Part shown: positions 1-47,175 of the stretch, one piece after another
Layout of the letters: each line of letters begins with the position of its first letter
How positions within the stretch are numbered: position 1 is the stretch's first letter
DNA from: Cyanidioschyzon merolae
Lineage: Eukaryota
Assembly: GCA_000091205.1 (NCBI GenBank)
Contig: AP006496.2
DNA length: 64,000 nucleotides
Reading direction: 5' to 3' (one strand)
Made by a program: the position numbers and the translations under genes
Notes under the pieces: model-generated
Told to the model about the DNA's origin: nothing
What the model saw: only the letters and a program-made list of their open reading frames with translations
Database searches by the model: none

Positions 1-1529
1 GAACACTTGCCGTCTTTGCCACTGTACTCTCGTCATCGTCCTGTTGGGCAAACACTGTTCCTGACCCATTTCCCCTCCTCTGCTTCTTTATTTGATCTTC
101 TCCGTTCGGCTTTAGTCGACAAGAGGATTTTTTCGTTCTTTTCCGGCAGTCGGCGATGTCGGGCCTCGAAAATCCTCGGCGTCCATGTCCATACCTTCTC
201 CTTCGGTTTCTTATTTCTTCAAATCAACGCACTTGCTTATGCCCTTAGATGAAGACATTCCCTGCGGGAGAAGGGCTTGCGGACGGCAGACATGGTATGC
301 CCCACTGTGTCGCCGTGTGCTGAACGCTTCAGCGATTCGCCCAGTGCAGCGATTATTGCGTTTCACGATAGAAAACACTCCTTCGATGGCATTGAAGCAC
401 GTAGAGCACCGAGGAAGGAAAAGCAGCTCTATCCCTATAGAACCGGCAAAATCCCGAACGCAAGGGGAATGGTGAAATGTCACCTGACTTCAGGGAGAAG
501 CCTTCAGTGATTTGGCAAAGCGAGTGTGATTGTGTGAGCCTTCTCTACGAGAAAGACTGCGGCCGCCAAAAGAATCCGCTGCATCTAGAATCGATGATGA
601 TTTCCGAGTTATCTTCGAGTTCGATCGGATATTCAACGGGCTCGCTGCTCCTGGACTATCCGAGCACGCTCCGACCGTATCATCCAAAGGAAGTCGCATC
701 GATTGAAGAAACAAACCGACGTCTCTCTGCTGCATATCGATACTACCTATCCAGGCACGTTGTTGTAGTTACGATTTCGGTGGAAGATGGCCGTGCGTGG
801 AACTGGACCCCATTTTTGCGACTGTATCCCAGTATTTTTAGGACAACAGGAACAAGCTATCGAGAAACAGAGACGCCCATGGTGGCTACTTTAGTCGCTT
901 TCGCTTTCAGTAAAGTCATCGACGAGTCATTTTCTACCATTGGCGGCAAGCACGCAATAAGAATACCCGTTTTTGGCGCGGAGCGCATATGCTTCTTTCT
1001 TTCCGTGTTCCTATATCATCTCTGTATTGTTGCATGACTGATCTGAAGGAGAAAAGTAGTCCTCCTTGAGCTGTTCAGTGCAGAATATATCCTACATGCA
1101 ATTCGTCTAGGATATATACAGTACATTCCAGCATGATTTCGATCCCATCCTATACATCGCAGCTGGGTTGGAGCGTAAATGAGTTGAGACACTTTAGGAG
1201 GCAGTACTGACGCGCGCTTCGGTCCCTGCACTTCCCTATTTATCTAGGCTTGTTCCAGATATACAGCCTCGACACTCAACGTGCACCAGTGAGAACTTAC
1301 GGATGCGTACTTATTTTCATGATTCTCCGGCATAGTTTCGGAGTCACTTTTTCGAGGCCTTACTGCTAGAACGCTTTGCGACGCCCTCGAACAAAGATGC
1401 GTGAATTAAGCGATATCGTTAATCAGTAGGTACTTACCAGATTGTACCCCCTTCTTTCCTTACGTGTAGCACCCTCAGATGACGCATGCTCCAAGTTCAC
1501 AGTCGTTCTATTGTAAGGCAACTCGTTGG

Positions 1530-2660
1530 CGCAACAATGCGCGCTGCTGAATTGAAGAGGAGGAGAAATTCTCCACTTCGTCCATGGTCGAGCTCATTGC
1601 ATGCATATGCTTAGAGTTCACTGAAATATTCGTGTGAAATAATGAATCCCGTTTGAGACGCAAATCCTTTCCTCATTGCAACCATAGACAAAACGGCATT
1701 CCACAATAGCGCGACGCCTCTCAACGGATATGTTCTCGGATGCTTCCGTTTCTTTTCTTTGCGTGGTAAAGGGTTCTGGACTCCGGCTTGAGTCATCGTA
1801 GCGATCGCTATTCGTGCAGAGTGCGTTTCCGCTGTATTCGAAATGTGCGTAGGGAGGAGTCGACGTTTCTTGACTTGATCTCGAGTCTAGATTTTCCTCA
1901 TGGTACGTTTTTCACCATGGACAGCATCGCGTCCCATAAACTCTCTTCTGTTCGAAAAACAGCAGAGAACGGAGGGTGAGTCATCATATTCAACCCCATT
2001 TATTCTGCATCTATCAAACCGATAGAGGACGTCATCGGGGCCGTGAAATGAAGCAGATGGAGAGATTTCGAATGGGACAACTGCACCTAGTTATGCTGCG
2101 GACGGATTACCCGGCGAGGGGATCGTCCAGAAGAAGCCCACGATCGAAGAGCACGACACCAGGCGTGAATACCAAGGGGCTCATCGCGAGGAGCCCTCTT
2201 TACCCGCCGAGGGCCTGTACCAAGCGATGAAGCAAGCATTCACGCGTCACGTGACGGTCCTCAGAGGAGGAGAAGGTCCAAATGATATATAGGAACACCT
2301 TAGCAGGTTCAAGGGCGCCCGTACGCGGGACGCACCGAGCCTGCACACAGAGAAGATGAAAATAGGAAGCGAAACGAAGATCGCATCTTGGGCCAGTCCA
2401 TTTCATCGTTCGACAGCAACTCGGAATCTAGAAATCAGATCTTGAACGCTGCCACCGATACCCTTCGACTGCTGACAACGCTGCTGGAGGGAAAGGAAAG
2501 ACCGGCGTATTTAAAGCCAAAGGTCAGCGAAGCGGAAAGGAGGCTGTCGCAGAATTATCCCCCAACGACTAATGTTCGTGGCAATGGGAAGAGACCCAAA
2601 ATTTAGTTTCTACACCCGAGTCAGCTGACTGGACCGGTTCCACTTTATTCTGAAATAGGT
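1530..2660 (+). mobile_element. Miniature, internally deleted TnpB/Fanzor-like derivative (family 2, copy a)
   Basis: 5-prime block caacaatgcgcgctgctgaattgaag, shared with the other family-2 copies. Mid block ...gacaaaacggcattccacaatagc. 3-prime remnant RNQILNAATDTLRLL (degenerate D-x-NAA-x-NIL RuvC-III motif) at about 2430. Conserved tail ...gtggcaatgggaagagacccaaaatttag...tacacccgagtcag...ttattctgaaatagg ending at about 2655. Confidence 0.6.
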
Positions 2661-2859
2661 GTGAAGCGATGCTCACTTTGGATGAAGTTTAAGGAAACTG
2701 ACCGCTCGTTGCGTCGGGGCGATGGATCTTTGTCGACGCCTTCCACGACCGAAAAACCAACCAAGCCCACAACCACTGCTTCAATGAATAGCGCAACGAA
2801 CGCTCTGCAATCAGCAATTCAAAGAACACCACACCTCATCCGTCACTACATAGAGAAAC

Positions 2860-4765: not shown

Positions 4766-5695
4766 ATGGGAACTGCACACGAGTCACTTGTTGTCGCAAC
4801 CTGGGAGTTCTCGCAAAGCGGAGTCGAAAGCTGTTTTGACTGCCTTCGGAAAGGTGGAAAACCGCTCGACGCAGTTGAAACTGGCATACACGTTGTAGAA
4901 CTCGAACCGACTGTGACCTCAGTCGGATACGGAGGCCTGCCGAACGCGAACGGCGAACTAGAGCTCGACGCAGCCATCACGGACGGTGCCCACTTCGGGG
5001 CTGTGTTTGCTTTGAGGGGATATCGCAGCGCGATCGGGATCGCTCGGGGAGTTCTGGAGCGCAGCGAGCATACGGCACTAGCGGGCAACGGCGCTGTGAA
5101 CTTTGCCCAGGAAGTTCTCGGTGAAGCACCCTTGCCCGATTCGGAGCTGCTAACCGAACACGCTCGACGCCGTCTGGCGGAATACCGAGCCGGCAGGTTC
5201 CAAGGACGGCCCAATGAATCGCATGACACCGTAGGGATGATAGCGGCTCAAAGCACAGGTGATATTGCCGCCGGCTGCGCCACTTCGGGATACCCGTTCA
5301 AGCGACCCGGCCGAGTGGGCGACTCACCGCTACCCGGCGGCGGACTTTTCTGTGAATCGGGGCTGGGGGCGGCGGTAGCTACTGGTGATGGTGACGACCT
5401 CATGCGTCTGTGCCCGACGCATCTCATTGTCGAACTCATGCGAAATGGACAGAGTCCCCAGCGCGCATGTGAAGAGGCCGTTCAGCGGGTCATGAGATAC
5501 CGTGAGCAGACAGGTCGAGATTGCCGTGGCGCGTTCATTGCCGTGCGCTGTGATGCCCTCGCTTGGGGTGCACATGCGACGCACGAAGGCTTCGTGGTTG
5601 CCCATGCCGATGGTCGACGCATGGATCAATCATTGCTTATACCTGTTGAGGTACCCGAAGCGAGGAACAAGCCCTGGCGACGCGTCTGTGTCTAG
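4766..5695 (+). CDS. Isoaspartyl peptidase / L-asparaginase (Ntn-hydrolase, plant-type asparaginase family)
   Basis: The autoproteolytic and nucleophile motif HDTVGMIA is present. GRVGDSPLPGGG and GDGDDLMRL blocks are typical of asparaginase_2 / glycosylasparaginase. The start is a true ATG at 4766. The last ~20 codons lie inside a 93-bp tandem repeat. Confidence 0.8.
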   Translation: MGTAHESLVVATWEFSQSGVESCFDCLRKGGKPLDAVETGIHVVELEPTVTSVGYGGLPNANGELELDAAITDGAHFGAVFALRGYRSAIGIARGVLERSEHTALAGNGAVNFAQEVLGEAPLPDSELLTEHARRRLAEYRAGRFQGRPNESHDTVGMIAAQSTGDIAAGCATSGYPFKRPGRVGDSPLPGGGLFCESGLGAAVATGDGDDLMRLCPTHLIVELMRNGQSPQRACEEAVQRVMRYREQTGRDCRGAFIAVRCDALAWGAHATHEGFVVAHADGRRMDQSLLIPVEVPEARNKPWRRVCV

Positions 5696-5900
5696 GCTTG
5701 CCGATGGTCGACACATGAATCCTGCATTGCTTGTATCTGTTAAAGTACCCGAGGCGAGGAACAAGCCCTGGCGACGCGTCTGTGTCTGGGCTTGCGGATG
5801 GTCGACACGTGAATCATGCATTGCTTGTACCTGTTGAAGTACCCGAGGCGAGGAACAAGCCCTGGCGACGCATTTGTGTCTAGGTTTGAGCCGCGTAATG
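5631..5900. repeat. Tandem repeat, about 93-bp unit x about 2.9 copies
   Basis: Units begin at about 5631, 5725 and 5817 (cattgcttatacctgttgaggtacccgaagcgaggaacaagccctggcgacgcgtctgtgtctaggcttgccgatggtcgacacatgaatc...). They are about 90 percent identical. The first unit contains the asparaginase stop codon. Confidence 0.85.
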
Positions 5901-6785: not shown

Positions 6786-7412
6786 TCATACCTTGCGCAG
6801 AATGGATGACGGATATCCCGACGGAGCTTTCAATACTGCTCGAGCGTAGAGCGCTCCACTGAGAACGGTGGTGGACCCCACGACCCAGCAGAGCGCCTGC
6901 AGAACAGGGTCGTCATCACCGGTACCCATTGCTGCTCCCAAACTCGCATACGAGATGGTGCAGAACTGCCCGAAAGTATTCAGCTTGCTGATAAACAGCG
7001 GCGCTACTCGATATGGCCAGGCGTCGCTGCTCTGCGAACGCGCAGGTTGCCCAACTGCGGCGTCCCGACGACGCGCTTCACGATAGAGCTTCACTGCAAA
7101 GTAGGCTCCACCCAGGATGAGGAGCGAGTCTCGAGCCAGAAACACACCGACAAGCCCAAGCGGGAGGACACCCTTCGCACTCAGGGCAGCAGCCGTTGCA
7201 TTGATCACTACTTTGTCCGCCACGGGGTCGAGTATGGACCCCAGCGTCGTCACCTTTTGGTACTTTCTGGCCAAGTATCCGTCCAGAACGTCGCTAACAC
7301 CTGCTGCTGCTACGGCCAAGGCAGCTATACTATAGTAATCGTTTACTATTAGGCCCCCAATAACAGGCGCCGTCACAAGTCGAGCCAGAGAAACCAGGTT
7401 TGCGGCGTGCAT
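6786..7412 (-). CDS. CDP-alcohol phosphatidyltransferase, cardiolipin-synthase-like (eukaryotic CLS type)
   Basis: CDP-OH phosphotransferase motif DGYLARKYQKVTTLGSILDPVADKV (D-G-x2-A-R...G-x3-D-x3-D). The N-terminus NLVSLARLVTAPVIGGL resembles the CRLS1 start. ATG verified at 7410-7412. Confidence 0.8.
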   Translation of the reverse strand: MHAANLVSLARLVTAPVIGGLIVNDYYSIAALAVAAAGVSDVLDGYLARKYQKVTTLGSILDPVADKVVINATAAALSAKGVLPLGLVGVFLARDSLLILGGAYFAVKLYREARRRDAAVGQPARSQSSDAWPYRVAPLFISKLNTFGQFCTISYASLGAAMGTGDDDPVLQALCWVVGSTTVLSGALYARAVLKAPSGYPSSILRKV

Positions 7413-7454
7413 GGCAAGAGCTTCGAACGATAGCTATCCGCGTTCGGGATCGCA

Positions 7455-7880
7455 CGTGGAATAGAAATGCCGTGTAGATGCTTCGATAATAGGCGATACT
7501 TTGGAGGATCCGTTGTCGATGCATCGATAATGAGCGATGCTTTGAAGGATGCCGTGTAGGTGCTTCGATAATAGGCGATACTTTGGAGGATCCGTTGTCG
7601 ATGCATCGATAATGAGCGATGCTTTGAAGGATGCCGTGTAGGTGCTTCGATAATAGGCGATACTTTGGAGGATCCGTTGTCGATGCATCGATTATGAGCG
7701 ATGCTTTGAAGGATGCAGTATAGATGCTTCGATAATAGGCGATACTTTGGAGGATCCGTTGTCGATGCATCGATAATGAGCGATGCTTTGAAGGATGCAG
7801 TATAGATGCTTCGATAATAGGCGATACTTTGGAGGATCCGTTGTCGATGCATCGATAATGAGCGATGCTTTGAAGGATGC
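7455..7880. repeat. 82-bp minisatellite, about 5 copies, plus a degenerate relic at about 7960-8035
   Basis: The string cttcgataat recurs at 7481, 7563 and 7645 (period 82). The unit is gcttcgataataggcgatactttggaggatccgttgtcgatgcatcgataatgagcgatgctttgaaggatgccgtgtaggt. It is rich in ATCGAT and ATGCAT palindromes. Every frame on both strands is open across it, so the track ORFs 7330..8055, 7373..7939 and 7692..8042 are repeat artefacts. Confidence 0.9.
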
Positions 7881-10659
7881 TGGAATCTGGAGGGAAACAG
7901 CTTGCTCTGCCGTGCTTGGTGCCCACAGAAGTTCCGCATGGAACAGAACTGCCGTGCCGATACATCGATTGCGAGCGACGCTTTGAGGGATTATGTGCGG
8001 TTTTATGGTGTAATGTCGATGCATCGAAACAAGCATATCCAAAAGTCCTGTTCAAGGGCTGGAAGCATCAGACTCCAGCAGCGAGGTCGCTACAGCAGCA
8101 ACGAGCGTTATCTCTTTGGCAATATCGCAGAGAGAGCAGGGTGTTACCTAGTATGTTCTCCTCAGCAAAAGGTGTGGCCAACTGTTGCTGGGCTCTATAT
8201 AATGCCCTGAGCACATGGTGAACTCGCGTCTCGCCACAGGAGGCACTTTCTTGAATGTCTTGGTTTTCGTATGACACGTTAAGGCTGGCAAGTTTCGCTG
8301 TAGTACATCAACTTTCGACCCCCTTTAGTCTCCACGCGAGCGTTCCGAGTCCACCATAGGGAGCTACGATGCGAATAGGTCGTACGACTCCTGTCCAATG
8401 CTGTAGGATGGAGGGACCTCTGTTAGAACGCCGCCGAAGACTCCCATACGACCTCTTAACAAGGGACGTTGACAGCACCGTGGTTGGAGCGCGACGACTG
8501 TCAGAGCACCAACGGTGTTCTTCATTGAGAAGTTGCAGAACAAGTTCAGCACCGCAGTATTCACAGAGAGTGCTCGACGAGCTCTGTCAAGGACGCTTCT
8601 CCACTCGGAACTGATGCACTGGGCTGGCCGCCGCTAGCACGGTCCGAGCGGCACGGGCATCTGTGCAAGCCGCTCGATCCAACAATCCTACACTACAAAA
8701 CATGCAATCTGTACGCTTACGTCATCCGTAGAAGGCACCAGACCGCGCCTTGAAATGCTGTCCTATGTGGTGACTCACTCGCACATTTTGCCAGCAACAA
8801 GGCGGCTCCGATGCATGTAGTGAATCCGCTCAATGAGGACACTTCGATGGTGTTCGCTGGCCCTTGTATGCAGGTAAGCGTGCAGCTCGAAATGGAAGCC
8901 TTTCCCTGCCGGTCTGTGAACATGATAGCTCAATGCATACGCCATCGATTTCAGGAGGATATTGCAAATCGGCTACAGGAACGGCATCGCGAACCCAAGG
9001 AGCAACAGGCGGGTCAGTATGACCGGAAACAGCAGCGCACGTCCATGGCCCTCCTCCCGGGAGCGCTGGACTGTTTAGAGGTGGGATTTTCGCCTCGCGT
9101 TTATTCTGCCGTGGGTCTTTCCAATAGTTGTGCCGCTATCTTGTCTTTACCGCGCAGTATAGAGCGAAACTATGCGCGCCCGGCAGGGTTACTATACAGG
9201 TTGGGTCGTTCGCACTCACCTGGGTATGCGTTGCCTACACAAAGTACGGAGCGCATCCACGAGTGTCTCCGAAGCGGGTGCCGCAGTTCGTTTTTTTCGA
9301 ACGGCATTGCAAGTATCCTGTGCTTCATCCGATCGAAAGCACCATCCGCGAACACCTTGTGATACTGGTCTCTATCACTCAACCGATCAGTTCCATACGG
9401 AAGCGCTGTATAAAAATCAGCGCGAACAGCGTCTGGGGTTCAAAGTCGTTAAAGGGTCGGCCCCTCTCAAAAATTCACTGAATGACTGCAGCTCAATGAA
9501 TCTGACTGAGTTTTCAGTTGCCTACGACCAGAGCGCAAGCAGGTCTTTCACAGTGACGAGCGTGCTGTTTCCAAAACCATCAAGGATCATCTTGTGGATT
9601 CTTTCTTCCCCGGGAGGCCGTCGAGCGGAAACTGTGGAGCGTTGCTTTAGCGATGCGTGGGTATTCCCAAAGGAACACGTACCACCATACCAGAATAAGC
9701 ACTGATGTGATTATCGCTGAGTATGGACGGAATGGTAACAGGCACCAAGAAAATGTGATGCAAGCTTCACCAAAAAGCAAAATAGTCCACGGCTGGCACC
9801 AGGGAGGTTTCAGTGCTCGGTAAACTTGCAGAGCATCCTGAGCAGCTGCACGAACTGTGCGACGCCGGAGCGGAGGTTCACGTAGCTGCAAATGTAGGTG
9901 GGTAGAGCCCCGTGACTTGCCACGGCACCTCAGAGACAGCCGCTTTACAGGACATCTCAGCCGTTTTAGGCGGGCACAAGCCTTTGGAACATATGAGGTT
10001 CGGTGAGCCGCACAGTCTGCAACAGCGAACCCGAAAAACAGCGTCCACGGCATGCTTTCACAGCGCACTATCTGGCTGCCTTCCGGAGCGAATGGAAGCC
10101 CTGAGTACTCAATTCGAGTACTGTTCCCACTTCTGTTCCCAGCTTGTCTGACAAAGCCAAGAACGCCTCCTGTAACGCATTCAACGAGCAAGGTAAATGC
10201 TCCAACGCTTCGGAGCGAGGCAGGACGTGCTCCTCAAACGCTTTTTTTCACCTAAAGCTAGTGGAGCTCGTCGAGTGAAATTATGCTCTACAGCGGCAGC
10301 GTCTACGCCGCTGTAAACCTTAAAATAAACCGACCTCTGTGGTTAACAGGTTTCGCTTACGTAAAGATGCACAGGCAAGCGCAGCGTCCCGAAGCAAAAA
10401 CGTTCCAGAACTCTAATATATGCTCAGCAGTTGTTGGTATCGGATGGATCCTGCCGTAGTGCAAGCAGTCCGCACTTTGGGATTCTTTGATCGCGGCCTC
10501 AGTGTCCGAAGTGACGCTGGACCGAATCTTTTCTCTTCAAGCAGCACATAATCGAGTAGTGAACATGTTCCATAGCTAGTCTGTCTGCAGCCGCGCTGTC
10601 TGCATTCGACACGACTCGGGCAGAAAGCCTCTACACCTATGTCAGAGTACAACAGAACA

Positions 10660-11700
10660 AGCCCACTCATCTATCTCGGGTGTCTACACTAGAATATGGG
10701 TCTTCCGACCGCCATCAACATTAGCCTCTGCAGTTTTTTTCTGTGACAGCTTCCTTTTCCATTCTTGTCTCCGGCTTCAAACGCACAGGTCTTTCGCTTC
10801 TCTACAGCTCGGTTCACAGCAGCCGAAGGATGTTTACGGCAATGTGCAAGTCCCGATTTCGCCGTTTCAGGTCGCTGTCTAGGCCTTTCATCAACAGACC
10901 GAAGTTGCTAACTACACATTGCTTGTCACTTTGATCTTCTTCGTATACTACCTTGGTGTGCACTTTTCTGTGGCGACGCGTGGCTGTCGTCAGGTGTTCC
11001 CATTTGTCCACCATAGCTTCTCATCCAAGGGCCGCTCTGTAGCACGTGAACGCCTGCTCGATGTCTCGGTACATGCCGTTGTGAGGTACACAGAGATCGA
11101 CACGATGCATTTCTCCGTTTCCGCGCATGGTACCGCACTTAACGATACAAGGCTTCTTCTGTACGATCCTTCAGCGAGGGACTTGTGCGCTACACATGCG
11201 GAAGCGCACGCAGTGCCATTCTGTTGAGGTTTCGTGGAACGCGATGTTGTCTATGGCGAAACACGGACCGTAACGAAAATCCAGGCTAGAGAAGGAGTCG
11301 AGGACCTTCGATCTGTGTACACTCCTTTCGTGCAAAGCGGTGAAGCGTTCTCCACTATAATTGATCGCTGCGACAACTCAAGTCCGAGTCCAAGCCCCTT
11401 TTTCATGCAAACAGAAGAGAAAGGGGCCCCTGGGAGCATATCCCGTAAGTGCTATCATGCTGTTGATGTCGAATGCCGTTTCTTCGATGGCTACATGGAA
11501 AGTAGGATACGTCTTTCGAAGGAAGTCGATTATTTGGCATGAGAAATTTAGTGAACGGTCCGCATTAGCTTGTGAACAAGTTGTCAAGGGACAACGTCGA
11601 GTTCGTTTCATCGTCAATCCAGCGACCCGCATTGCTGCGCTTTCAGTCTGCTTTGAAACAGAAATAGAACGGTTTGAGAATCCGTAATTTGAACATGCTT
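10660..11700 (-). mobile_element. Miniature TnpB/Fanzor-like derivative (family 2, copy b)
   Basis: On the minus strand: 5-prime block gcaatgcgggtcgctggattgacgatg. Mid block FHVAIEETAFD (track ORF 11378..11632). 3-prime remnant KRRNRDLHIAVNILRLL (track ORF 10814..11014). Conserved tail ctaatgttgatggcggtcggaagacccatattctag...agacacccgagatag. Confidence 0.6.
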
Positions 11701-12105
11701 CGCGTAAGAACAGGGAAAGAGTGTAGGCTCATGCGTATGAGTTTGATATGATATCGTTCATGTTTACGAATCCTTCTTCAAGGGCATCGCAACGTATCTT
11801 ATTTCCGGTGACGTAAAGAATTCAAGCGGCAGAGCCTCGGAGCCGTTCCAGAAGGACGACCGAGAATCCTGAAACTACGTTTGCATCCGTAAACCCTTAT
11901 TGATGCTCTTCAATTATAGAGGCTTTTGCATCTACGAAAAGTTTGAGAAAAATCGAAAGAGAACAATAAAGCGTGCCGTTCTTTATTCCATCTCAATTTA
12001 ACCGAAGTCCAGTGGCTGCGGGCTTGCAAGTAGCGTCGTGCGTTTGTCCAGCCTCGGTTACGCTGTTCGTCGCTGCAGTGCGTTTGGTTGGTGAGTGTTT
12101 TTTCC

Positions 12106-16629: not shown

Positions 16630-17089
16630 AGCTGGACGGCAGCAACGAGGCTTTTCAAAAAGATGCCGGTGGCGGCGCTCGTTCCGCTGCTGCGCAATGG
16701 CTTGGCGGCAGTGGCGGCTATACTCGTGTCAGATGAAAATAGAATACGAAAATACTTGCTTTGTTCTTAACTTTCGATTTTTCTTCCGGACTTTCTAGAT
16801 CCACAGACTCGGCATACGAATCACAGCAATAGGGGCTTCCGGATAAACATCTGCTTTTAGAAGTCTGGTTCTTCTTCCCGGAGTGGCTCATTCGACTCTT
16901 TGGCGCTGGAACTCGTTACATTACCGGAATCAAACTGATTCGCGACGCCCTCTAAAAAGGGTTTCTAAATAACCGATATCATGATCGAATTTTTACGTAA
17001 AAAACTCCACGCTTCTCGATTCTTTAGGAATGGCGTGCTCAAATCAGACTTTACTCAAGTTTTCCGCTTTCTGTATCAAGGAAACTTGA

Positions 17090-19215
17090 TGGTGCAGCGA
17101 TGCGCGCTGCTGGATAGGTCAGGAAACGTAATCGGCATCGTCACTCGACGATTTCTTCGCAAGCTCCTGCAGAAAGTTCATCGAAATCCTCATATCAAGC
17201 AACGGATTCCGTTCGCACGACGAAGCCTCCTCGTATCGTTGTTCGCAACGAAACGGCATTTGTCAGCAGCCTGATACCCCTCACGTGATATGCTCCCTGA
17301 GGTTGCGCTTTCTTTTGTCTGCACAGAAAAGCACCACAGACTCGTGCCTAAGTCATTCTAGCGACGGCCCCCAGTACAAAGTGTTTCACCGCTTTGCCAA
17401 GGGAGCATAGACTGATAGAAATCCTCGACTTCTTCGCCGGGGAGGTCTATGAGCGGAAAAGTACGCATTGCGACTCTGAACCATCTCAGCGTCATCTCTC
17501 TCGGCGCGTGATTGAGTCGTTGACGTAAAAGTGAATGCACGAGGACGTAGTCATCAGCCTGGACGACGTGAAGGTTCTCTCTGTGACAGGTGCTTCTTCG
17601 CAGATCATAGGCTCGTCGGATGAAAAGACAGTGAGAAGCCTCAGTCGAGTACCTCCCAAAGGAGACGATGGCGAGAAGATGATGGATCTGGCGCCTTCGA
17701 GTAACCCGCCAACGAGAGCGATTCTACACTTTCGCATCTGAATTGATGCTCCGCAGCTCCCGTAGGGGAGAGATCTTCTCCAGTTTTGAACGCACTTACG
17801 GGTCGCTGCTACGACAACCTCGATTCGCGACTTTTTCGCTTCATTGTGGAGATGAATGCCTGTGCAAAGGCGGCGTAGATGCGTTCGAGGCTCTAAAAGT
17901 AGCGTGGAAGAAGAATAGTAGCTGATTGATAGCATGGAGTTCATGAAGCGGATCGCGTACACGTCGTCCAAAGATTCGGCGGAACTCTTGAGTCGCTGCA
18001 GGAAAGCCAAGCGACGGAAGGCAGAGAAAACTGCGAATGGGAAGAGAAGGGGACGAACGAGACGGCCTCGGTGCGACGAAGAGGCGCGGTGTCCTTCCTC
18101 GAGATTGATGGTGTGGGAGTAGGCATCATGATCAATAGCGAACGTCTTGCAACCGTCCGACCTGAGACGAGCCCCTGATCCCAAGAGGAATCACGCCGTG
18201 GAGCAAGGAGGTATACAGAAGTGTGGCCTCGCGAACTTGGCCTCCATAGCGATTTGCATCGGTCTGGACCCAGAGAGAGCGAACCTCCACACCTGTGCTT
18301 TCATGAGTTTCGAAGAAAAACCCGATTCACCTGGGATAATCGACGACTTACTGGAAGCTCGAATTCCGTCCTATTCGTGTTTCAACTACAATCTTAGGTC
18401 CTAAGCGTGTGCCTAGCATCTTCGTCTCAGCAAACGGGAGCAAACTAGAAAATAGTTCGACCAGCAGGCAAGTGATACGGAAGGGCGTCACAGGCTCCTT
18501 AGCCGCAATGTCGCAATTGAGTGGACCATGTGGAAACTGTGCCCATGACTGTATATATTTCTTCAATGACCGTTACCCTGGTAGGCACGTTTTGTGGGGA
18601 GGGCACTCAGGAACCAAACAGCATGCAGGGACGCCGACTGTGAGCTATTGAATGGACCAGCGTGTGCTTGCACCTGCTGCGGACGGAGTGCTCTAGGATG
18701 GGACCTTTCAAAAGAAGTACCTGATCGTAGAGTACGGTTGTGGGCACGAAACTGGCAGAGGGCATCGAAGAAAGCCCTTTGTAGCCATGAGGAACGCGTC
18801 TCGAGCGGTGAAACAAGCGCTCATGCATTACAGGACGGCTCGCAGCGATGGAGCTGTTGTGTAGAGGTGTGAAAAACTGGCCACAGCCAATTTTCAACGC
18901 CGCCAAGGCCACAACTATGCTATTTACAAATATGATGGAAATGACAAGCGGAGCGGAAATTGCAGCTTCCTTCTGTGCATGAAGTACGTCGAAAACAAGC
19001 GCAAGCAGCGAAATCCTGACCTTCATATTGCTATGAGCATCCTCCAACTGCTCATAACCGAGCTGCAGGGCAGCGAGAGACCGCCATATTTGACGTTCGC
19101 AGAAGAGCGAGAGGAAAAGGAATCTTTCGCTAAAATGTCCCGTAAATGCTCTTGTCAATGACAATAGGAAGAGATCCAAACTTAAGAGTGGACGGCTATG
19201 CTCTGAGATCTGTCC
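17090..19215 (+). mobile_element. TnpB/Fanzor-like derivative (family 2, copy c), longer, with two tandem 3-prime (RuvC-III) segments
   Basis: 5-prime gcgatgcgcgctgctggataggtcagg, encoding QRCALLDRSGNVIGIV. This resembles RuvC-I DPGNTNIITIA of family 1. Mid block aaacggcatttgtcagcagc. A first RuvC-III-like stretch PIFNAAKA at about 18890, a second RNPDLHIAMSILQLL at about 19010. Tail tgtcaatgacaataggaagagatccaaacttaag. Confidence 0.5.
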
Positions 19216-19328
19216 CATTTTATTCGAACGTGGGTGTGGGCTTTGAAAACGGCGCTGGCAACAGTGCTACCGGGAGAAGCATCTGCCGCGCTAAGTAAGA
19301 GCTTTTGGCGGGTTCACTTGAGGCCGGC

Positions 19329-23159: not shown

Positions 23160-26100
23160 GCTCCGCGGGCCGCGTGCTTTCCGTACTGGAGCCAGTGCCT
23201 CCTAAGAAGATCGCACTAGTTGATCGAACCCTCGGAAGCGCACATGCTATCTAGGGAAGCATCGGTCCATCTTATAAAGCCTAGAATCAAAGCCTTCTCT
23301 GCGAGTCATGCATGCAGACGAATTTGAAAATTTCAGCCAAATCCAATTGGTGCGCGAGACGCAACGCGAAAGGCTAACATCGCTAATTCGACCAAAACTT
23401 TGAAAATGAAATCCTGACAGGGGCGCTTCATAGGGTAGACGGAGAGCCGCCGGTGCCTGCCACAAACTGTACGGGGATTCCAGTCTCATTCTGCGCGTTT
23501 TTCATAATCTCGCCACGAGCATTCCGTTTTCCACTAGCTCCTGGCTGGCGGGGCACCAGAATGCAGGTTACCCACCGCGCGTTACCATATTCCAGTAACT
23601 GCTCGCTCAGATATTGTAGTGTGTGGCTGTTCGTCAAGCAGTCGCAGGCCAAATGCCCCCTGGTCACGTTCCTTCACTGCTCAGTATGTGAACGATAGCG
23701 CGTATGGTTCGAGTCGAGAATATTCATGCGATCCTGCGTGGCGCGTTGCAACACTACTTTCGGGTCAGGCTGACATTGTTTAATAACATGCACGCTCTGT
23801 TTCTGCCTTTCGATTGCTTTTCCAAATTTTTTCAGATACTTAGGCTCGGCATTCGAATTGCCGTCATAGGGCTTATGGATTCAGGTTTCGTTTTAGGATT
23901 CTTCGTCGTCTTTTCAGTGCGGCTCCTTCGGAGATTTGCGAATGGAGCTTGCGTTTTCATAGGAATCAAGATGATTCGCGACGAATCCGAATTGCAGTTC
24001 GTAAAAAACCGACACGATCTCCAATTGATACCAACATGTCTCCATTGTTCTCCTGCCCTTACGTGTAGCATGGGCAAGTCAGGCATTCTTCTCGTTTTCG
24101 ATGTTTCTGTTTCACGGCAAATTGTGGGCGCAACGATTCGCACCGGCGGAGTGGCGAGGAAAAATACTTGACGTCTTCCCTTGACTAATGGTACACAGGC
24201 TCATGCCAAAGGTTCACTGAACTTGTAACGTCAAACATTTGACTCTCTTCGAGAGACAAATCCATCTCTCGAAGTGACCGCGAAGATGCAGTATTCCAGC
24301 GCAGCAAATTACATTCACGGGATACGATCCCATAGGCTCCTGTCTCATTTGTTTGAATCGGTAAGGGTCTTGGACTGGGCTTGAGTCATCTTAGCGATTG
24401 GCTCCAGTGGAGAGTGCGTAACCATTTTGCGCGAAGGAAGCGGGATTGGATCGAAGCATGTCGACTTGATCTCCAGCCTTTTTGATCCTTCCAGTTCGAG
24501 TTGCGTCATGCCCAACATCGCATCCGACAAATCCTCATTGGAACGGAAAGGCGTGCACTTGGGCGTGCAGCAGTCAGAGTGCTCGCAAAGTGGACGAGAA
24601 AGAATCCCGTGCTCGTAGGGTACGGTACTAGTTGCGGAAAGAGAGGGAGGCATCGAAGTGGACATCCTGTACTCGTCAAGGGCATGCACCGAAAGTCGAC
24701 GTAGACGCTCACACTCCACTAAGCGACACTCGGAGGCGGATTCGTGGTGAAACAGTGGAGAATCCTGACCACAGCCATGTTTCACCTGTTCGGAAGGTGC
24801 AACAATGCTGGATTCAAATACGATGAATGTGCCAAGCGAAGCGGGGACCGTAGCTTGCACATGTGATAAAAATGAGGCGAAAACAGCTGGAAAATCTATA
24901 TCGTTGCCTGAGCGCAAGTGTGGAAACACTTCGACTGCTCGTAACAGAGCTCGGGAAAAAGGAAAGCATTGCGAATTTAAAGCCTGAGATGAGAATGAGA
25001 GAAAATGGAAGCAGCCGCAGGAATGGTTCCCAACAAAGCTGACTTTGATGACAGTGGGAAGATATCCATACTTTATTGTGTGAGTCTTCTAAGTATAAAA
25101 GACTGGTTCGATTGTATTCTGGTATAGGTGTTGTACTGCTGCGCGGTCGGGCGTGGCGTGCAGAAATCGAATTTCGCTTGCTGTTCCGGAATCCGCGATT
25201 GGCGAAATAACTCAGGACGAATTTCGATTTCTTGAAATTCAATTTTGACGCATGCCGCGCGACCGCGAAACCGGCCTCCGCTTAGTCGGGCAGTGGTTCG
25301 ATCCGCGTGTCGCGGCTTCGGATGTCTAGTTGCCCGTGTACGGCGCCCTCGCTCCAACACTGATGCAGCCCGGTGCTTGTAAATGGTTGCGCAGTCCTTC
25401 GAATGCATCCGTGCCACTGCCCGGAATCCGCTTAGCGCATGGGTGCTAGTTTGCAATCTGGTATCGGTGTGTCAACGCAGGTCGCAGCGCTGGAATTGGT
25501 AGTTTTGCGCCTGCTTCTGTACATGCAGATGTCCTTAACGAGTAGAGCGAACTCTTGTTTCAGAAGTTCTACTTTCTAAAGGCGAATGCCTTGCGCGGAT
25601 CGGCGCTCCCAAACTTAAATCTCCGTCCTAAATTCCCTGGAAAACTCATATTTTCAAGTAAAGAGTTTCCCGTATAGAGATTTCATGTAATATGCCACGC
25701 GTCGTGTGGGTTGAAGGTACGGCGACTATCCCCATTGTTGCTCGATGAGCTGCGCTTCGGTTTCCTTCTATCTGTTATACTAAGATTCAGTATGTTTCAT
25801 GCTCCAAGGGCGCAGCGGACTCCGAGGAACGCAGTTGGAGCGTTGGAGAGTAGAGATCGAGCTCTTCGTGTCATGGGGGCCGTATGAGTCGCGGGTTTCA
25901 CATGCACGGCGCTCGCTGTACTGCGTAGTAGCTGCACCTTACCAACCAACGCATTAATCGGTCGAATTCGGGGGCAGCGGGATGCTTTATGGTTGGGAAT
26001 CGATGAGACTAAGCAGAGATTTCGTGGAAACGCGTTTGTAAACTGAGCCCAGGGAAGCAACCACCTGAGCACCTCGCCAAATACTCAACGTTCCACTGTT

Positions 26101-36066: not shown

Positions 36067-37089
36067 CACGCGTTTTACGTCTTCCACTATGAAGCGGGCC
36101 TCGTGCAACTGTAGCTGAAGTTCGCAGCGGCGTAGTGCACGAGACATCCGCGCTGAATCTTCGCCATGACGATTTCTGATGACAAAACGTTCACATTGAC
36201 CATGGATCGCAGGGTGCGAGATGGATATTGGCATTCTGGAAAACGTTCATCATGCTGGATCCTACCTCCGATATCCATTACTTAAACTTCTTCTCGAATT
36301 TACTGGTCGCTTCACACGATCCATCGAGCGCCGAGTGCCTGTTTTGAGCTCCAGCTAAAGCGCCCAAACCGCCAATGCTGAAGCAGCACGGAGACAGAAC
36401 AGCTTTGCCATGCTACAGAGGGCATCGGCTCGAGAAGTGTTTCATCCGACACGGGGTCGAGATTCATTATCATTCTGGGAGCCTGCAAGCTGTGCTGATA
36501 GATCTACTGCCTGCGGCAGCGGGAAGCGATTTACAAGGAGTCCAGTGCGACCGATGCGACGCCCAAACGCACCCTACCTGCCCCTTATCCAAGAATAAAA
36601 TACGTTGCGGACGAGCAGCTCAAGACGCTCCACTGCACCTGCCACCGAGGGTAGCATGAAGCACCAGTCCGGCAGACTCAGCCGGCTCGCGGGACTTTCC
36701 GACTAGAATGTAAAAGTTCGACAATATGGAAACCTATTCCCCGTTCAACGTTTATCCTAGAGGGGAACGAAATTGTTATCTTGGCGCTAGTTAGTGGTCA
36801 GTTTCTGTTCTTTGTTCTATAGAGCGCAGTCGATATGCGTACATACAAATCTGGCATGCATGAGACACGAGGCGCATCTCGCCGTTGAAAGGAAACACGA
36901 TCCTTACCACTAGTTGACTTGTTGCTCTATTGGGCATGTTGCATTTGCGTTGAAGTCGTAGCAAAGAAAGTTTTCAGTTCAATCGTATTTCAAACCGCAA
37001 GCAAGCATATTCTAGTGTTTTTCGGTGTTTATAACAGAAGTGTTCGAAGCGGGTTCGTTTTCAAAAAAAAAGAAAAGTTATCGAAATGG

Positions 37090-39320
37090 AAAGGGAGGAC
37101 CCTGGAGGGCCAGTATCGCTGGTTGGCGGAAGAAACCAAAAGCATGACGGAGCAAAGAGGTACAAGAGAAGACGAGGAAGCATAAGGGGGAGACCCGACG
37201 TTAATGGCTGCACGAAAGACGACACCACGACAAGAAGTTGGTGAAAGCCTGTCTTCTGAGACATATCAAGAGCCCGTACTACCAAAAGTTGCAAAAGGCT
37301 GTCAGAAAGCCTGTCAAGTCGTACTCCACGAGTGTGGGTGACGTTTCTTTAAGACTGATGCGTATGGCGAGAGATCTGTATCGCGAATTGCTGCACATGG
37401 AAAGATTCGGGTTCCGTAAGAGTTTTTCAACAGGATCTTCACCAGCTACCTGATGGCTGGAACAGGGAAAACGTCTTGGAGAGACGAGCGAGTGCACGTC
37501 CTCCAGGAAAACTTCGCGGAGTACCGCTTCAACGGTACGTCATACAAGGATGACTCGCATATTTACGAATACGGGGTGATGAAGTACCTCACGAACCTGA
37601 AGAACCACATGATCGTGCGCCTCGAACGCTTCATGGTACGCTCTTTCTTTGCACTCTACCCGGGACTGTCTCGCAAAGGGATATGGGCCATCATCCACGG
37701 TATCACGAAAGATCGTCATCATGAACAGTAGATAGAATTCATCGACAAGAAGAAATCACACAGGAGAAAGAATCAGGGTTATGTAATATGTGTGGCTATT
37801 CAAGAGCACCGTTCGGTCCTGGAGCTTGTCAACCCACAGTGGGAGTATCAGATATGAAAAAAGATGAAGAAAGATGTCATCTCCTCATCCTGCGCTATGT
37901 CGTGTTTTTGAATCGAGAACTCGAACGCAAGGCAGAGATGGATCAGGATATGGAAGAAAATGAAGCGTCGGTGGAACGGAATGCTATGCCTTTGAAGAAG
38001 ATCTTCTATGTCGTTCCGCTATGCAACACCAAGTCACATTTTGTGACGATCGACTCCAGAATCTTTTACGGCGTCATGAAGGAGATCCGCTCGGAGTTCG
38101 ATGTAAGCAGGTAGGAGTTCACTGGCAAAAACTGGGAGACGTACTGGAAGAATACCTTCCATTTCAAACGTCTCAAAACGAGCAAGCAAGGGCTATTCAC
38201 GGAGATCACCGAAACCGATGGAGTATCCATTTGCGCACACTATAGTCGCTTGAAGGCGGATCGTCCTATTGTGTTTTCGGCTTCGCCCTCGCTGAAGCAT
38301 GAAGATGAGAGGGAAGCAGGCCATAAGACGAAGGAGATGCAAGAGAACGACTCCCTGGTCAGCGCAGATCCTGGGAACACGAATATCATAACCATCGCGG
38401 CACGCAAGTGTCGGGAAGATGGTATCGACGGCAACTTACGTCACAAAGACATGCGTCTTTTGAAGTTCTCAAGAGCGAGATACTACCGAGAATCGGGAAT
38501 AATGAATTGGAGGAGGAAAAGTGAGAAATGGAATGCAGGAGTGAGGGAGCAACTGGAAGCGATCAGCCAGGTGACTAGCCATGGGGCGGACTTCAAAGCT
38601 TACCTAGAGTTCATAGAAACTCAAGCTGCTCATTACGAGGAGCTGCGGAAAGAGTACACAAAGCCCCCGCGGGCTCGTCTGCTTATGAACTTGTACTGTG
38701 GGTAGCAGCGTGCATTTGCCAAACTTTTCAATCAGATGAGCACCCTCAAGGAGGTCAAGAGTCAAAGACTCGTAGTAGCTTATGGAGCACGGCGCTGGAG
38801 GCCCAACAGAAGAGCATACCAGCTCTATCAACGAGAGCGTACAAGGAGTGCGCCATTCGTTTCGTCACGGTACCGATAGATGAGTTTCGAACGACCTATG
38901 TGCACCACGAGCTGGGGTGCCTGCTCCAGAGGATCGAGATGCAGTGAAGGCAGCGGAGCCCTGAGGATATAGAAAAGTACGGAGAGCTCACAGAGAAGGA
39001 TGTGGAGTAGAGAGCACGAGTTCGAGGACGACTTGCCCCAGAGAGTACAACCAGCGGCGGCAATAAACGCATGGATTTTGTGAAGCTTGAATTGAACACC
39101 TCCCTCAATGGCAGACGATGTGTGGTATTGAAGACGAGACCCGCCGAGCTGACGCGATCCAACTTTGTGGGCAGCCTGTCAGGTTCGAACCGTACAAGGG
39201 AAAGCCAATGCCGATGGCAAGGCGCCGGCCAAAATAGGCGGGAGGCGTCTGCAGGTGGTTGTGTATATATAGACTCTCTCGTCGGTATGTATTCGCCATG
39301 ACGATGAGAATCAACAGCAC
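37090..39320 (+). pseudogene. Fanzor/TnpB-like (RuvC-type RNA-guided nuclease) element, family 1, copy 1. Frameshifted, and the RuvC-III Asp is lost.
   Basis: Coding pieces lie in frames 2/1/0/2/0/2 (track ORFs 37238.., 37453.., 37788.., 38021.., 38250.., 39071..). RuvC-I SADPGNTNIITIAARKCREDGIDGNLRHKDMRLLKFSRARYY at about 38360. RuvC-II-like RFVTVPIDEFRTTYV at about 38850. The position homologous to RuvC-III reads LELNTSLNG, where copy 2 has NRDFNAATNI. It is paralogous along its whole length to 59440-61620. Confidence 0.7.
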
Positions 39321-41142: not shown

Positions 41143-41699
41143 CCTGGACGTAGCCTGAGCCTCGAACCCAAGCTCTGTGGCCTTTGTTCCTATGCTCGTC
41201 CGTTTGCAGGCTGTCTCGAATGCGACGACCGCTTATACGCAGCGCAGCGGGAGCTGGACTGTATTGATATGTAGGAATATGTACTTATGCGAATACTTCA
41301 TGACAAGAGTAAAAGAAGTTGGACACAAGCAATGCGCATCGACGGCTTGCGAGCGATGTACTCGACCCTCGTTCACAAAAAATGCAGCACTGAACTGCTC
41401 GCTCTGATCATGTATTTCGAAATTTTCCATAATTTTTTGGATGAGCAGCCTCAAACTTCGCAGCAGATCAATAGGGACGTACTGACTCAAACGCGGATTG
41501 AGGAAACTCACCCGTCTTTTCAATGTGGCCTCTTCGATCACTTGCCACTGAATTTCGTTACGTCACGGGAATTAAGATGATTCGAATTACCCCAAAAAAG
41601 GTCCCTGTAATAAAGGATAGCATTACCCGTTTCATACGCACAAGCCTCCACTCCTCGCCTTTTTACGTATAGATGCTCAAATCACGTGTTGTTTTAATT

Positions 41700-47010: not shown

Positions 47011-47175
47011 CTAGGGCCGTCCTTTCCATGAGATCAAATCGATGATGGACCGAACGAGCGACACAAAATGGGATCCACTTCGGTGCCTGTGTTCTCCGAG
47101 AGAGCGTGATCGGTAGCCTCCTGAGGTCCATTTCAACGCTCTCATTTCCATGCAGCATGATCCAGCCGCATCACA

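Follow-up and report, generated by a model that had tools for sequence, protein, structure and literature searches.

Composite Mariner elements that carry a Fanzor1 gene, i.e. those of the PUl-1 and PGv-1 type, have been described by Bao and Jurka (2013; PMC3627910), and the red alga Cyanidioschyzon merolae has a known Fanzor1 element, CMe-1A (PMC3627910). We infer that CMe-1A is the ~3.2 kb 'WSV486-like' repeat for which Nozaki et al. (2007; PMC1955436) found 253 copies in C. merolae. The genome has been advertised as nearly free of transposons, with 0.7% of the sequence and 8 class II elements (PMC1955436), and a 2024 paper on the 'dispersed repeats' of C. merolae makes no mention of transposase, Mariner or Fanzor. 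TnpB and Fanzor1 proteins carry the C-terminal signature [TS][TS]-x-x-[C4 zinc finger]-x(5,50)-RD (PMC3627910). In the Fanzors the canonical RuvC-II position is non-acidic, and an alternative Glu is located ~45 residues downstream (PMC10530073).

The DNA studied here is a 64 kb stretch (the window) of nuclear DNA from C. merolae 10D, bearing CMN locus tags. Exact matching of its proteins leads to the C. merolae 10D proteins BAM81294-81313, although the polymerase ORF of 1084 amino acids has no exact match. A bacterial or pseudogene-rich genome was rejected as the source, since the proteins encoded in the window include eukaryotic domains, i.e. FH2, a polymerase delta zinc finger and a eukaryotic Asp protease. 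The window contains an element on the minus strand (copy b) that is, with a probability of about 0.8, a dead non-autonomous copy of a cut-and-paste DNA transposon of the Tc1/mariner-IS630 (DDE_3) type that has a Fanzor1 tail. In the ~1.4 kb family to which it belongs, the first part of a gene for a Tc1/mariner-IS630 transposase is joined to the last third of a gene for Fanzor1, the eukaryotic TnpB.

Full-length copies and their termini

The copies in the window, and the ends of copy b, are as follows.

10634 to 12009, minus strand: copy b, whole element (nhmmer family matches; termini from 9- and 18-copy end alignments and coordinate mapping)
11984 to 12009, minus strand: decayed 5′ terminal inverted repeat (TIR) of copy b, beginning GACTTCGGTTAAATTGAGATGGAA, with the flanking dinucleotide TG at 12010-12011
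10634 to 10704, minus strand: 3′ untranslated end and 3′ TIR of copy b (TTCTGTTGTACTCTGACATAGGTG at 10634-10657), with TA directly outside at 10632-10633
1241 to 2667, plus strand: copy a (nhmmer), in which a further ~120 bp (1972-2094) are retained that encode the transposase's third catalytic block, VIIFNPIYSASIKPIEDVIGAVK
16709 to 19242, plus strand: copy c (nhmmer), with a unique ~1.2 kb insert (17441-18646) in place of the block of the second Asp
23744 to 25167, plus strand: copy d (nhmmer with copy b as query, E 3e-120)
41301 to 42731, plus strand: copy e (nhmmer with copy b as query)
45568 to 47015, plus strand: copy f (nhmmer with copy b as query)

The original prediction placed a copy of a non-autonomous repeat on the minus strand, and this is borne out by the five other full-length copies in the window that are matched by copy b (nhmmer, E 1e-39 to 1e-120). 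The extent then proposed, 10660-11700, was too short and missed the 5′ quarter of the element. At least 12 further copies are present in related hot-spring metagenome contigs, giving 18 distinct full-length copies in all; these have the same architecture, each covering positions ~5-1389 of the family HMM. The copies are 73-80% identical to the consensus and 56-61% identical to each other, in a star-like pattern. The 5′ and middle blocks of copies b and d had been put at about 75 percent identity; the measured value for the two copies is 61%, both overall and within 10660-11700, and the best 100-nt segments (11347-11621) reach only 70-72%. The insert of copy c has no similarity to the PUl-1 transposase, the PUl-1 Fanzor or the CMe-1 Fanzor, and since it is unique in the window it cannot be treated as a retained piece of the progenitor.

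The consensus of the 18 copies begins with a TIR of 26 bp, CACCCGTGTCAGATTAAAATGGAACA, that matches the reverse complement of the 3′ end at 24 of 26 positions. The score of the local alignment is 21, compared with 6.4 ± 1.1 for shuffled sequences and a maximum of 13 in 5000 shuffles. The TIRs are visible in the consensus only, being undetectable inside single copies. The consensus has TA on both flanks, probably a target duplication; as read from the end alignments this is intact at four of 17 5′ ends and seven of 18 3′ ends, and most of the other flanks are one base away from TA. Weak inverted similarity extends ~5 nt past the TA, so that the ends can be placed only to within a few bases.

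We note that the family is poorly described as a MITE, taking that term to mean an element of less than about 800 bp with TIR and TSD and no coding remnant. The copies are 1.38-1.43 kb in length and consist almost entirely of coding remnants, so deletion-derived non-autonomous element is the better term.

Transposase and Fanzor1 remnants

The coding remnants of copy b are arranged as follows, all on the minus strand and in order from the 5′ end of the element.

11615 to 11852: remnant of the HTH region of the transposase N-terminus, SGTAPRLCRL ... SVSKQTESAAMRVAGL (consensus Pfam matches; mapped coordinates)
11471 to 11494: first catalytic motif of the DDE transposase, VAIEETAF in copy b, VAIDETAF in the consensus (Pfam DDE_3, tblastn)
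11372 to 11392: in-frame TGA, WTRT(stop)VV, also given as WTRA(stop)VI (projected translations, six of six window copies)
11231 to 11254: second catalytic motif of the DDE transposase, IDNIAFHE (Pfam alignment and coordinate mapping)
11194 to 11224: junction of transposase and Fanzor, TEWHCV, frame change, VAHKSLAEG (the consensus needs a frame switch)
10778 to 11193: Fanzor1 C-terminal remnant (Pfam PF07282, hhalign, NCBIfam), containing the five features below
11132 to 11152: canonical RuvC-II strand, PCIVKCG (hhalign to Fanzor1 and mapping)
10985 to 11005: relocated Fanzor Glu in KWEHLTT (hhalign to Fanzor1 and mapping; PMC10530073)
10967 to 10978 and 10883 to 10894: decayed zinc ribbon, RRHR and LMKG (mapped coordinates)
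10817 to 10858: RuvC-III, NRDLHIAVNILRLL
10778 to 10795: ERPVRL

The 5′ part of the family is homologous to DDE_3 transposases. The consensus matches Pfam DDE_3 with 30.6 bits (cutoff 28.6, E 3.6e-7), and when the extra block of copy a is added to it the score becomes 51.4 bits (E 1.4e-13), covering positions 3-131 of the 146 of the profile. With that block included the IS630 model NF033545 is matched with E 1.1e-15, the score falling short of the full-length cutoff of that model (100 bits). Copy b alone, after frame correction, matches DDE_3 with E 7e-4, and the Mariner transposase of PUl-1 finds the family by tblastn (E 3e-5). HTH_33 (E 5.9e-5) and HTH_Tnp_Tc3_2 (E 4.8e-4) match the consensus, both below the Pfam cutoffs. 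The first and second catalytic aspartates are present in the consensus (AIDET and MDNIA), and the third block, YSASIKPIE, is found only in copy a; the ancestral transposase probably had all three catalytic residues. In copy b the first position is Glu and the second Asp is retained, and no copy has an intact transposase gene.

The peptide FHVAIEETAFD does lie where it was originally reported, in the minus-strand ORF 11378-11632, and had been put forward as a diverged RuvC-II region, a reading at odds with a match of this mid block to any unrelated family. The mid block is DDE_3 transposase, and the peptide is the first Asp motif of that IS630/Tc1-mariner domain, aligning to the Mariner transposase of PUl-1.

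The 3′ part is homologous to the C-terminus of Fanzor1. The consensus matches the Pfam family Cas12f1-like_TNB (PF07282) with 33.4-33.6 bits (cutoff 26.3, E 5e-8 and 4.3e-8), and the tails of the family align with seven Fanzor1 C-termini (taken from PMC3627910) over 114 columns, with an hhalign probability of 97.4 and E 1.3e-11. The aligned features are the relocated Fanzor glutamate, the zinc ribbon, NRDxNAAxNI and the RPxxL tail. In addition the tail matches the NCBIfam model guided_TnpB (NF040570; E 4.6e-4), and the C-terminus of the PUl-1 Fanzor aligns to the consensus with E 3e-5. Taken alone, the tail of copy b has no Pfam match; it does align along 31 columns with the profile of Fanzor1 C-termini (hhalign probability 75%, E 2.5e-5). 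The minus-strand ORF 10814-11014, which ends in KQCVVSNFGLLMKGLDSDLKRRNRDLHIAVNILRLL followed by a stop, reads as originally given, and the assignment of a TnpB-family tail with RuvC-III is upheld by these profile matches.

The consensus contains the C-terminal signature, TTAKCHRC...CMKC...NRDLNAA. Copy b retains the TT and RD but none of the four cysteines (CHRC to RRHR, CMKC to LMKG). The Cys-containing stretch noticed earlier in copy b is thus at the position of the zinc ribbon as suggested, but provides no zinc ligand; its single Cys (KQC) corresponds to a Ser in the consensus (GKRSVD).

The equivalents of RuvC-II are located further 3′ than had been proposed, at the PCIVKCG strand and the Glu of KWEHLTT. 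The corresponding strand of the consensus, VIVEYG, which itself contains a Glu, is aligned with the VVVAYG/GWG strand of Fanzor1. The Glu of WEHLTT, ~48 residues past the VIVEYG strand, is aligned with the invariant Glu of DE[YF]RTS. The RuvC-I Asp would be expected 125-275 residues upstream of these, and is absent; what lies upstream of the tail in every copy is the DDE_3 transposase. Thus the tail is a fragment of a Fanzor and not a Fanzor gene, and the element is a chimera of transposase and Fanzor rather than a miniature TnpB gene. The junction between the two halves is the same in every copy, including the database ORFs P0098, P0099, P0101 and P0105.

All the copies are pseudogenes. Each window copy has six to eight stops in the transposase frame and one to five in the tail frame (three in copy b), together with frameshifting indels; some of these lesions are common to several copies and some are private. 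Divergence is equal at the three codon positions (0.40/0.40/0.42 and 0.41/0.42/0.42), i.e. the pattern of substitution is neutral. No copy in the window has an open frame in its tail for a potentially active nuclease, and copy b is a molecular fossil that is non-functional as a nuclease. The TGA at 11372-11392 is found in six of six window copies and retained in the 9-copy consensus, so that the master element was amplifying with its transposase frame already broken.

Origin of the family and alternative explanations

The best reading of these data is that the 1.4 kb family is an extinct, trans-mobilized deletion derivative of a Mariner plus Fanzor1 composite like PUl-1. The founder would have had TIRs of ~26 bp with, probably, a TA target duplication on either side. 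It would have been filled by a transposase gene with the HTH and the two Asp motifs, and in the oldest form the YSxxxxPIE block as well; a few codons past its catalytic core this gene would have run into the last ~135 codons of Fanzor1 and the 3′ untranslated end. The simplest origin would be an internal deletion within a composite of Mariner and Fanzor1 similar to PUl-1 from Pythium, by which the transposase lost its end and the Fanzor its N-terminal two thirds, RuvC-I included. The shortened element would already have carried in-frame stops when it was amplified, being moved in trans by an autonomous partner that is now missing. Amplification would have occurred in the Cyanidioschyzon lineage, probably after the split from Cyanidiococcus, with neutral decay of every copy since. 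There is no match to the family in the Cyanidiococcus locus that spans the intervals of copies e and f, and the intergenic region orthologous to the site of copy f is just 133 bp.

No autonomous progenitor with a complete transposase and a complete Fanzor1 was found among the sequences searched, so that the deletion model is one without a direct parent. Searches of 5.8 billion proteins revealed no intact homologue; two of them yielded nothing but ORFs of this family, 5 and 6 in number, all short and broken. In sequence searches of solved structures, the profile and the consensus of the tail and the consensus of the transposase gave 0 matches at E ≤ 10, and no relative appeared in a scan of viral contigs.

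It is conceivable, though unlikely, that copies have been co-opted, the 5′ end serving as promoter or 5′ regulatory DNA of a neighboring gene, or the 3′ end giving a structured RNA that resembles omega or fRNA. All 18 copies are close to full length, and the 5′ ends of copies b, c, e and f fall between ~160 bp upstream of, and 8 bp inside, the ATG of a divergent gene (by the initial nhmmer boundaries), the neighbors being galK, DNA polymerase delta, eIF2-alpha and CMN211C; there is a like arrangement at another locus (L011). However, copies a and d are away from gene starts, Cyanidiococcus lacks the copies that adjoin eIF2-alpha and CMN211C, and the positions can be accounted for by the preference that DNA transposons have for sites near promoters. 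At the 3′ end, 230 nt of the consensus fold better than shuffled sequences (z = -2.7, where most other segments give z around 0), but this is a weak effect for a consensus. Moreover, per-site divergence is uniform along the element, both ends being as diverged as the rest.

Guide RNAs of Fanzor and TnpB are encoded at the 3′ or right end of the element. The deletion might have been non-arbitrary, creating a guide-RNA hitch-hiker; on a second reading, several copies would now serve as promoter DNA for the housekeeping genes beside them. We give either of these little weight. If the former were true, the parts kept would be both TIRs, for a transposase acting in trans, and the 3′ end of the Fanzor together with the right end. 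This would make the family a eukaryotic equivalent of the bacterial omegaRNA-only non-autonomous elements, with a Fanzor acting in trans for retention or homing.

Less probable again is that the founder encoded a functional fusion protein, comprising the DNA-binding part of the transposase, a partial RNase H fold and the C-terminal lobe of Fanzor, and did not arise by a random deletion. The identity of the junction across copies would fit this, but is predicted equally well by amplification of one deleted master. The consensus in the Fanzor frame is an uninterrupted ORF of 187 codons from an ATG, and the database ORFs P0098 and P0099 cross the junction in one frame. Against this, the consensus requires a change of frame at the junction and has three stops in the transposase frame, one of them in all six window copies; the Fanzor RuvC-I Asp is missing, as is the third catalytic residue of the transposase except in copy a, and there is no codon-position bias.

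That the whole element is a miniaturized, decayed TnpB or Fanzor gene, in which the mid block contains RuvC-II and the terminal part RuvC-III, is scarcely credible: the tail is truly TnpB/Fanzor-like and 'vaiEe' superficially resembles a RuvC-II strand, but the mid block and all the sequence 5′ of it match DDE_3/IS630 and not TnpB, the consensus residue is Asp within a classic xxDExxF motif that is followed at the spacing typical of DDE_3 by DNxxxHK and, in copy a, YSxxxxPIE, the Fanzor RuvC-II equivalents align elsewhere and RuvC-I is absent.

Relation to known systems

With this family, C. merolae has a second, independent Fanzor1 lineage, where one Fanzor family was listed before (PMC3627910), and the association of Mariner with Fanzor1 gains a red-algal example. 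The six family copies and two copies of CMe-1A occupy about 14 kb of the 64 kb window, and thus much of the 'empty' intergenic DNA of C. merolae may be fossil transposon. There is a caution for annotation too; since DDE transposases and RuvC nucleases have look-alike motifs, a RuvC-III-like motif beside a 'vaiDE' strand need not mean TnpB. Because no copy is intact, the family has no direct biotechnological value.

The CMe-1A copies were located by blastn with the CMe-1A consensus.

36178 to 39190: CMe-1A copy
59323 to 61543: CMe-1A copy

CMe-1A shares with the family its genome, a similar age (78-81% identity to its own consensus in the window) and a RuvC-III motif of Fanzor1 type, NRDFNAAINI. 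We can nevertheless reject membership of CMe-1A, since blastn against the family consensus gives only chance matches of 10-17 nt, and at the protein level the only similarity is in the 17 residues of the RuvC-III motif (E 0.03). CMe-1A is 3.2 kb in length with a Fanzor ORF of 734 amino acids in its consensus, and has neither a transposase remnant nor TIRs.

Bacterial TnpB of IS200-IS605 elements resembles the tail in its C-terminal zinc ribbon and RuvC-III, seen in the matches to PF07282 and NF040570. However, the family lacks TnpA (Y1 or serine recombinase) as well as RuvC-I and subterminal hairpins, and its tail has the relocated Glu and the RPxxL tail that are specific to Fanzor1.

The likeness to IS630/Tc1-mariner elements is in the DDE_3 core, the remnants of an N-terminal HTH, the short TIRs and the likely TA duplication, and to their non-autonomous forms in being an amplified, internally deleted master. 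Ordinary deletion derivatives of this group contain transposase remnants only, whereas the C. merolae family has in addition a tail of the TnpB family. Among the Fanzor1a-d clades, Fanzor1c is reported to be the one associated with Mariner/Tc1.

The closest likeness in organization is to PUl-1, with a Tc1/mariner-type transposase at the 5′ side and Fanzor1 at the 3′ side of one element bounded by TIRs and flanked by TA, and both PUl-1 proteins align to their respective halves of the family consensus with E 3e-5 each. PUl-1 is 3.6 kb in length with two complete ORFs and resides in an oomycete (Pythium), whereas the family of the red alga is 1.4 kb, and entirely pseudogenes; its transposase lacks the end, about two thirds of its Fanzor are gone, and the remnants abut.

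Copies of the family

The original prediction had placed a miniature element with a RuvC-III remnant on the minus strand at 10660-11700, and both of its peptides are found on that strand. Searching with this element (copy b) using blastn and nhmmer identified five further copies in the window. The coordinates of copies a, c, d, e and f are nhmmer hit boundaries, and only copy b has refined termini.

Copies of the 1.4 kb family in the window
1241-2667, plus strand: copy a, with an extra ~120 bp at 1972-2094
10634-12009, minus strand: copy b, containing the flagged finding; refined termini
16709-19242, plus strand: copy c, with a 1.2 kb insert at 17441-18646
23744-25167, plus strand: copy d
41301-42731, plus strand: copy e
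45568-47015, plus strand: copy f

Three additional copies were located on contigs found via protein matches, and a metagenome scan gave 31 loci. Removal of near-identical orthologues left 18 distinct full-length copies, each spanning essentially the whole 1.4 kb model. The identity of copies b and d, put earlier at about 75% for the 5′ and middle blocks, was measured as 61% overall, with the best 100-nt windows at 70-72%.

The copy c insert takes the place of the second-Asp block. It resembles neither the transposase nor the Fanzor references and occurs once in the window; it holds a 230-aa minus-strand ORF (17492-18184), and no annotated protein accession lies between the flanking DNA polymerase delta and OTU genes. 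Among the metagenome loci, L025/L026 (1556-3511) and L032-L034 (4137-4881) are partial copies, inverted or nested, beside a full copy; L024/L041 carry an internal duplication of ~90 bp, and L042 has lost internal sequence.

Transposase and Fanzor1 halves

The majority consensus of the copies translates to two recognisable pieces in different frames. The 5′ 800 nt contain helix-turn-helix remnants (HTH_33, E 5.9e-5; HTH_Tnp_Tc3_2, E 4.8e-4; both under the Pfam cutoffs) and a DDE_3 domain scoring 30.6 bits against a Pfam cutoff of 28.6, with the motifs LFVAIDETAF, GSVDESKFLDLISSL and MDNIAFHKS in order. This half also matches the Mariner transposase of PUl-1, a composite element of Pythium ultimum whose sequence is given in the supplement to Bao & Jurka 2013 (E 3e-5). 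The extra 120 bases at 1972-2094, in copy a alone, read VIIFNPIYSASIKPIEDVIGAVK, the YSPxLNPIE third catalytic block of a DDE_3 transposase. Its inclusion lifts DDE_3 to 51.4 bits (E 1.4e-13; positions 3-131 of the 146 in the profile) and brings a match to the IS630-family transposase NF033545 with E 1.1e-15. None of the remaining 17 distinct full-length copies has the block, so copy a belongs to an older subfamily that has lost less sequence. Given the DDE_3, IS630 and PUl-1 matches, the 'vaiEe' block previously proposed as RuvC-II is instead the first catalytic Asp motif of the transposase (VAIEETAF in copy b, 11471-11494; consensus VAIDETAF), in which a mutation in copy b has turned the Asp into Glu.

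The 3′ 450 nt of the consensus read AADRVLAEGIVQKKPVIVEYGTGRGNGGGHRGEPSVPVKGMYRAMKQ...VVNIWEHLTTAKCHRCEG...RNFRLCMKC...NRDLNAAINILRLLTTELEGKERPAYL. This tail passes the Pfam model Cas12f1-like_TNB (33.4 bits, cutoff 26.3), matches NCBIfam guided_TnpB (E 4.6e-4) and aligns with the C-terminus of the PUl-1 Fanzor1 (E 3e-5). Profile-profile comparison of eleven family tails with seven published Fanzor1 C-termini gave a probability of 97.4 (E 1.3e-11) over 114 columns. In this alignment the family VIVEYG pairs with the Fanzor1 VVVAYG/GWG strand, WEHLTT with the invariant DE[YF]RTS, the two CxxC pairs with the zinc ribbon, NRDLNAA with NRDxNAA, and ERPAYL with the RPxxL tail. The TnpB-type RuvC-III remnant claimed for copy b is upheld by the Cas12f1-like_TNB match of the consensus and the NRDxNAA pairing. 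Taken alone the copy b tail is under Pfam detection, and it aligns to the Fanzor1 profile with E 2.5e-5.

Fanzor1-derived features of copy b (minus strand)
11132-11152: canonical RuvC-II strand, PCIVKCG
10985-11005: relocated Glu, KWEHLTT
10967-10978: zinc ribbon pair 1, now RRHR
10883-10894: zinc ribbon pair 2, now LMKG
10817-10858: RuvC-III, NRDLHIAVNILRLL
10778-10795: ERPVRL

In Fanzors the canonical RuvC-II Glu is reportedly lost and a conserved Glu ~45 residues downstream used instead (PMC10530073); the corresponding spacing in the family is ~48 residues. The suggestion of a Cys-containing stretch at the zinc-finger position stands in part: the family has the ribbon, and the single Cys that had been noted replaces a consensus Ser, all four zinc ligands being lost in copy b.

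The transposase-derived part stops a few codons past the catalytic core (IEWNSV), and the Fanzor-derived part begins AADRVLAEG in another frame. All copies share this junction, as do the database ORFs P0098, P0099, P0101 and P0105. No counterpart of RuvC-I or the Fanzor N-terminal half is present in any copy.

Termini, decay and genomic setting

Conservation starts and stops sharply at the ends. The 18-copy consensus starts TA/CACCCGTGTCAGATTAAAATGGAACA and ends TGTTCCATTTTATTCTGACATGGGTG/TA, with a 26 bp inverted repeat (24 matches); on a 9-copy consensus the repeat has a local alignment score of 21, compared with 6.4±1.1 (maximum 13) in 5000 shuffles. It is no longer detectable within single copies. 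As we read the end alignments, 4/17 copies at the 5′ end and 7/18 at the 3′ end still have the flanking TA, and most of the others are one substitution away from it; this fits ~25% decay per site without amounting to proof.

Every copy is broken by stop codons, 6-8 in the transposase frame and 1-5 in that of the tail, and by several frameshifting indels. A TGA at WTRA*VI is common to all six window copies and two other stops persist in the consensus, so the transposase of the amplifying master was already broken. Pairwise divergence at codon positions 1/2/3 is 0.40/0.40/0.42 in the transposase part and 0.41/0.42/0.42 in the tail, the 3′ non-coding part being similar. Copies are 73-80% identical to the consensus and 56-61% to each other, a star-like pattern that would be expected of a single burst followed by neutral decay. 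A search of 5.8 billion proteins returned only the family's own short broken ORFs, and the viral contigs scanned held no relative.

The locus syntenic with window ~35-54 kb in Cyanidiococcus yangmingshanensis (JANCYV010000008.1, 232979-253956) spans CTP-transferase through eIF2-alpha, proteasome alpha-1 and a SET-domain protein, and matches neither the family model nor the published C. merolae Fanzor1 element CMe-1A. Between formin and CMN211C, where copy f lies, the Cyanidiococcus intergenic region measures 133 bp; in the window it measures 2.0 kb. The window's insertions within the syntenic stretch are thus either specific to the Cyanidioschyzon lineage or lost in its sister.

C. merolae is a red alga, nearly without introns and with ~55% non-coding DNA. 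Eukaryotic domains are found in the window's long ORFs: a family B polymerase together with the polymerase-delta zinc finger, FH2, a eukaryotic aspartyl protease, and SET alongside a Rubisco-LSMT substrate-binding domain. Nine ORFs match C. merolae 10D proteins exactly, including galactokinase (galK, BAM81298, 12106-13344), eIF2-alpha (BAM81309, 40168-41142, minus) and CYME_CMN211C (44281-45576, minus). Tandem arrays lie at 5594-5888 (94-nt unit x3), 7385-7880 (41-nt unit, ~12 repeats), 47189-47298 (55-nt unit x2) and 57336-57721 (98-nt unit x4), and a CCACCG(Pro)-rich run at 48668-48837 within the formin gene. Downstream of copy b a 203-aa ORF (9580-10191, minus) matches Pfam DUF6737 in precomputed metagenome gene calls; from this match it is probably a real gene, which would place copy b in a divergent intergenic region between it and galK. 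Copy c fills the entire polymerase delta/OTU divergent intergenic region.

The neighbours are known for nine copies, and in five of these the element's 5′ end is no more than ~200 bp from the start codon of a divergent gene. By the initial nhmmer boundaries the ends of b, c, e and f range from ~160 bp upstream of the ATG to 8 bp within it; the position listed for copy b is its refined terminus.

Element 5′ ends and neighbouring start codons
copy b: 12009; galK ATG 12106 (97 bp apart, refined terminus)
copy c: 16709; DNA polymerase delta ATG 16629
copy e: 41301; eIF2-alpha ATG 41142
copy f: 45568; CMN211C ATG 45576 (overlap 8 bp)
L011, a related locus outside the window: ~7230; ATG ~7030 of an unnamed gene

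These positions could reflect insertion preference or promoter co-option. Fanzor and TnpB guide RNAs are normally encoded between RuvC-III and the element 3′ end. The last 230 nt of the consensus (RuvC-III to the 3′ TIR; ~10634-10858 in copy b) have a fold z of -2.7, with 2/200 shuffles as good, and most other 230-nt consensus windows have z ~0. The gene-start positions and the fold both fit insertion preference and chance; they leave a small probability that the retained Fanzor 3′ end mattered in the role of a guide-RNA module, or that copies acquired a regulatory role through co-option.

We envisage an internal deletion in a composite Mariner+Fanzor1 element that spared its two ends, the greater part of the transposase gene and the 3′ end of Fanzor. 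In the common ancestor of every copy but a, a later deletion of 120 bp would have taken out the PIE block, and the deleted element would have been mobilised in trans by cut-and-paste transposition, inserting mostly into promoter-proximal intergenic DNA. It is long dead and encodes nothing functional today.

Relation to published elements

Capture of Fanzor1 genes by the Mariner elements PUl-1 and PGv-1 was described by Bao & Jurka (PMC3627910), where the sole Fanzor family listed for C. merolae is CMe-1A (3169 bp, ~150 copies, no TIRs). Nozaki et al. reported a ~3.2 kb repeat (253 copies; its truncated ORF is weakly similar to WSV486), which from its size we infer to be CMe-1A, and 'eight transposase-related elements' akin to those of bacteria (PMC1955436); some copies of the 1.4 kb family may be among these eight 'class II' hits. 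By blastn against the 3169 bp consensus, CMe-1A is present in the window at 36178-39190 (80.5% identity, nearly full length) and 59323-61543 (77.7%); these are presumably the 'family 1' of the original prediction. CMe-1A and the 1.4 kb family have no DNA similarity by blastn, and a 17-residue RuvC-III motif is their sole likeness at the protein level. On these comparisons the 1.4 kb family is a distinct, second Fanzor1 relic of C. merolae.
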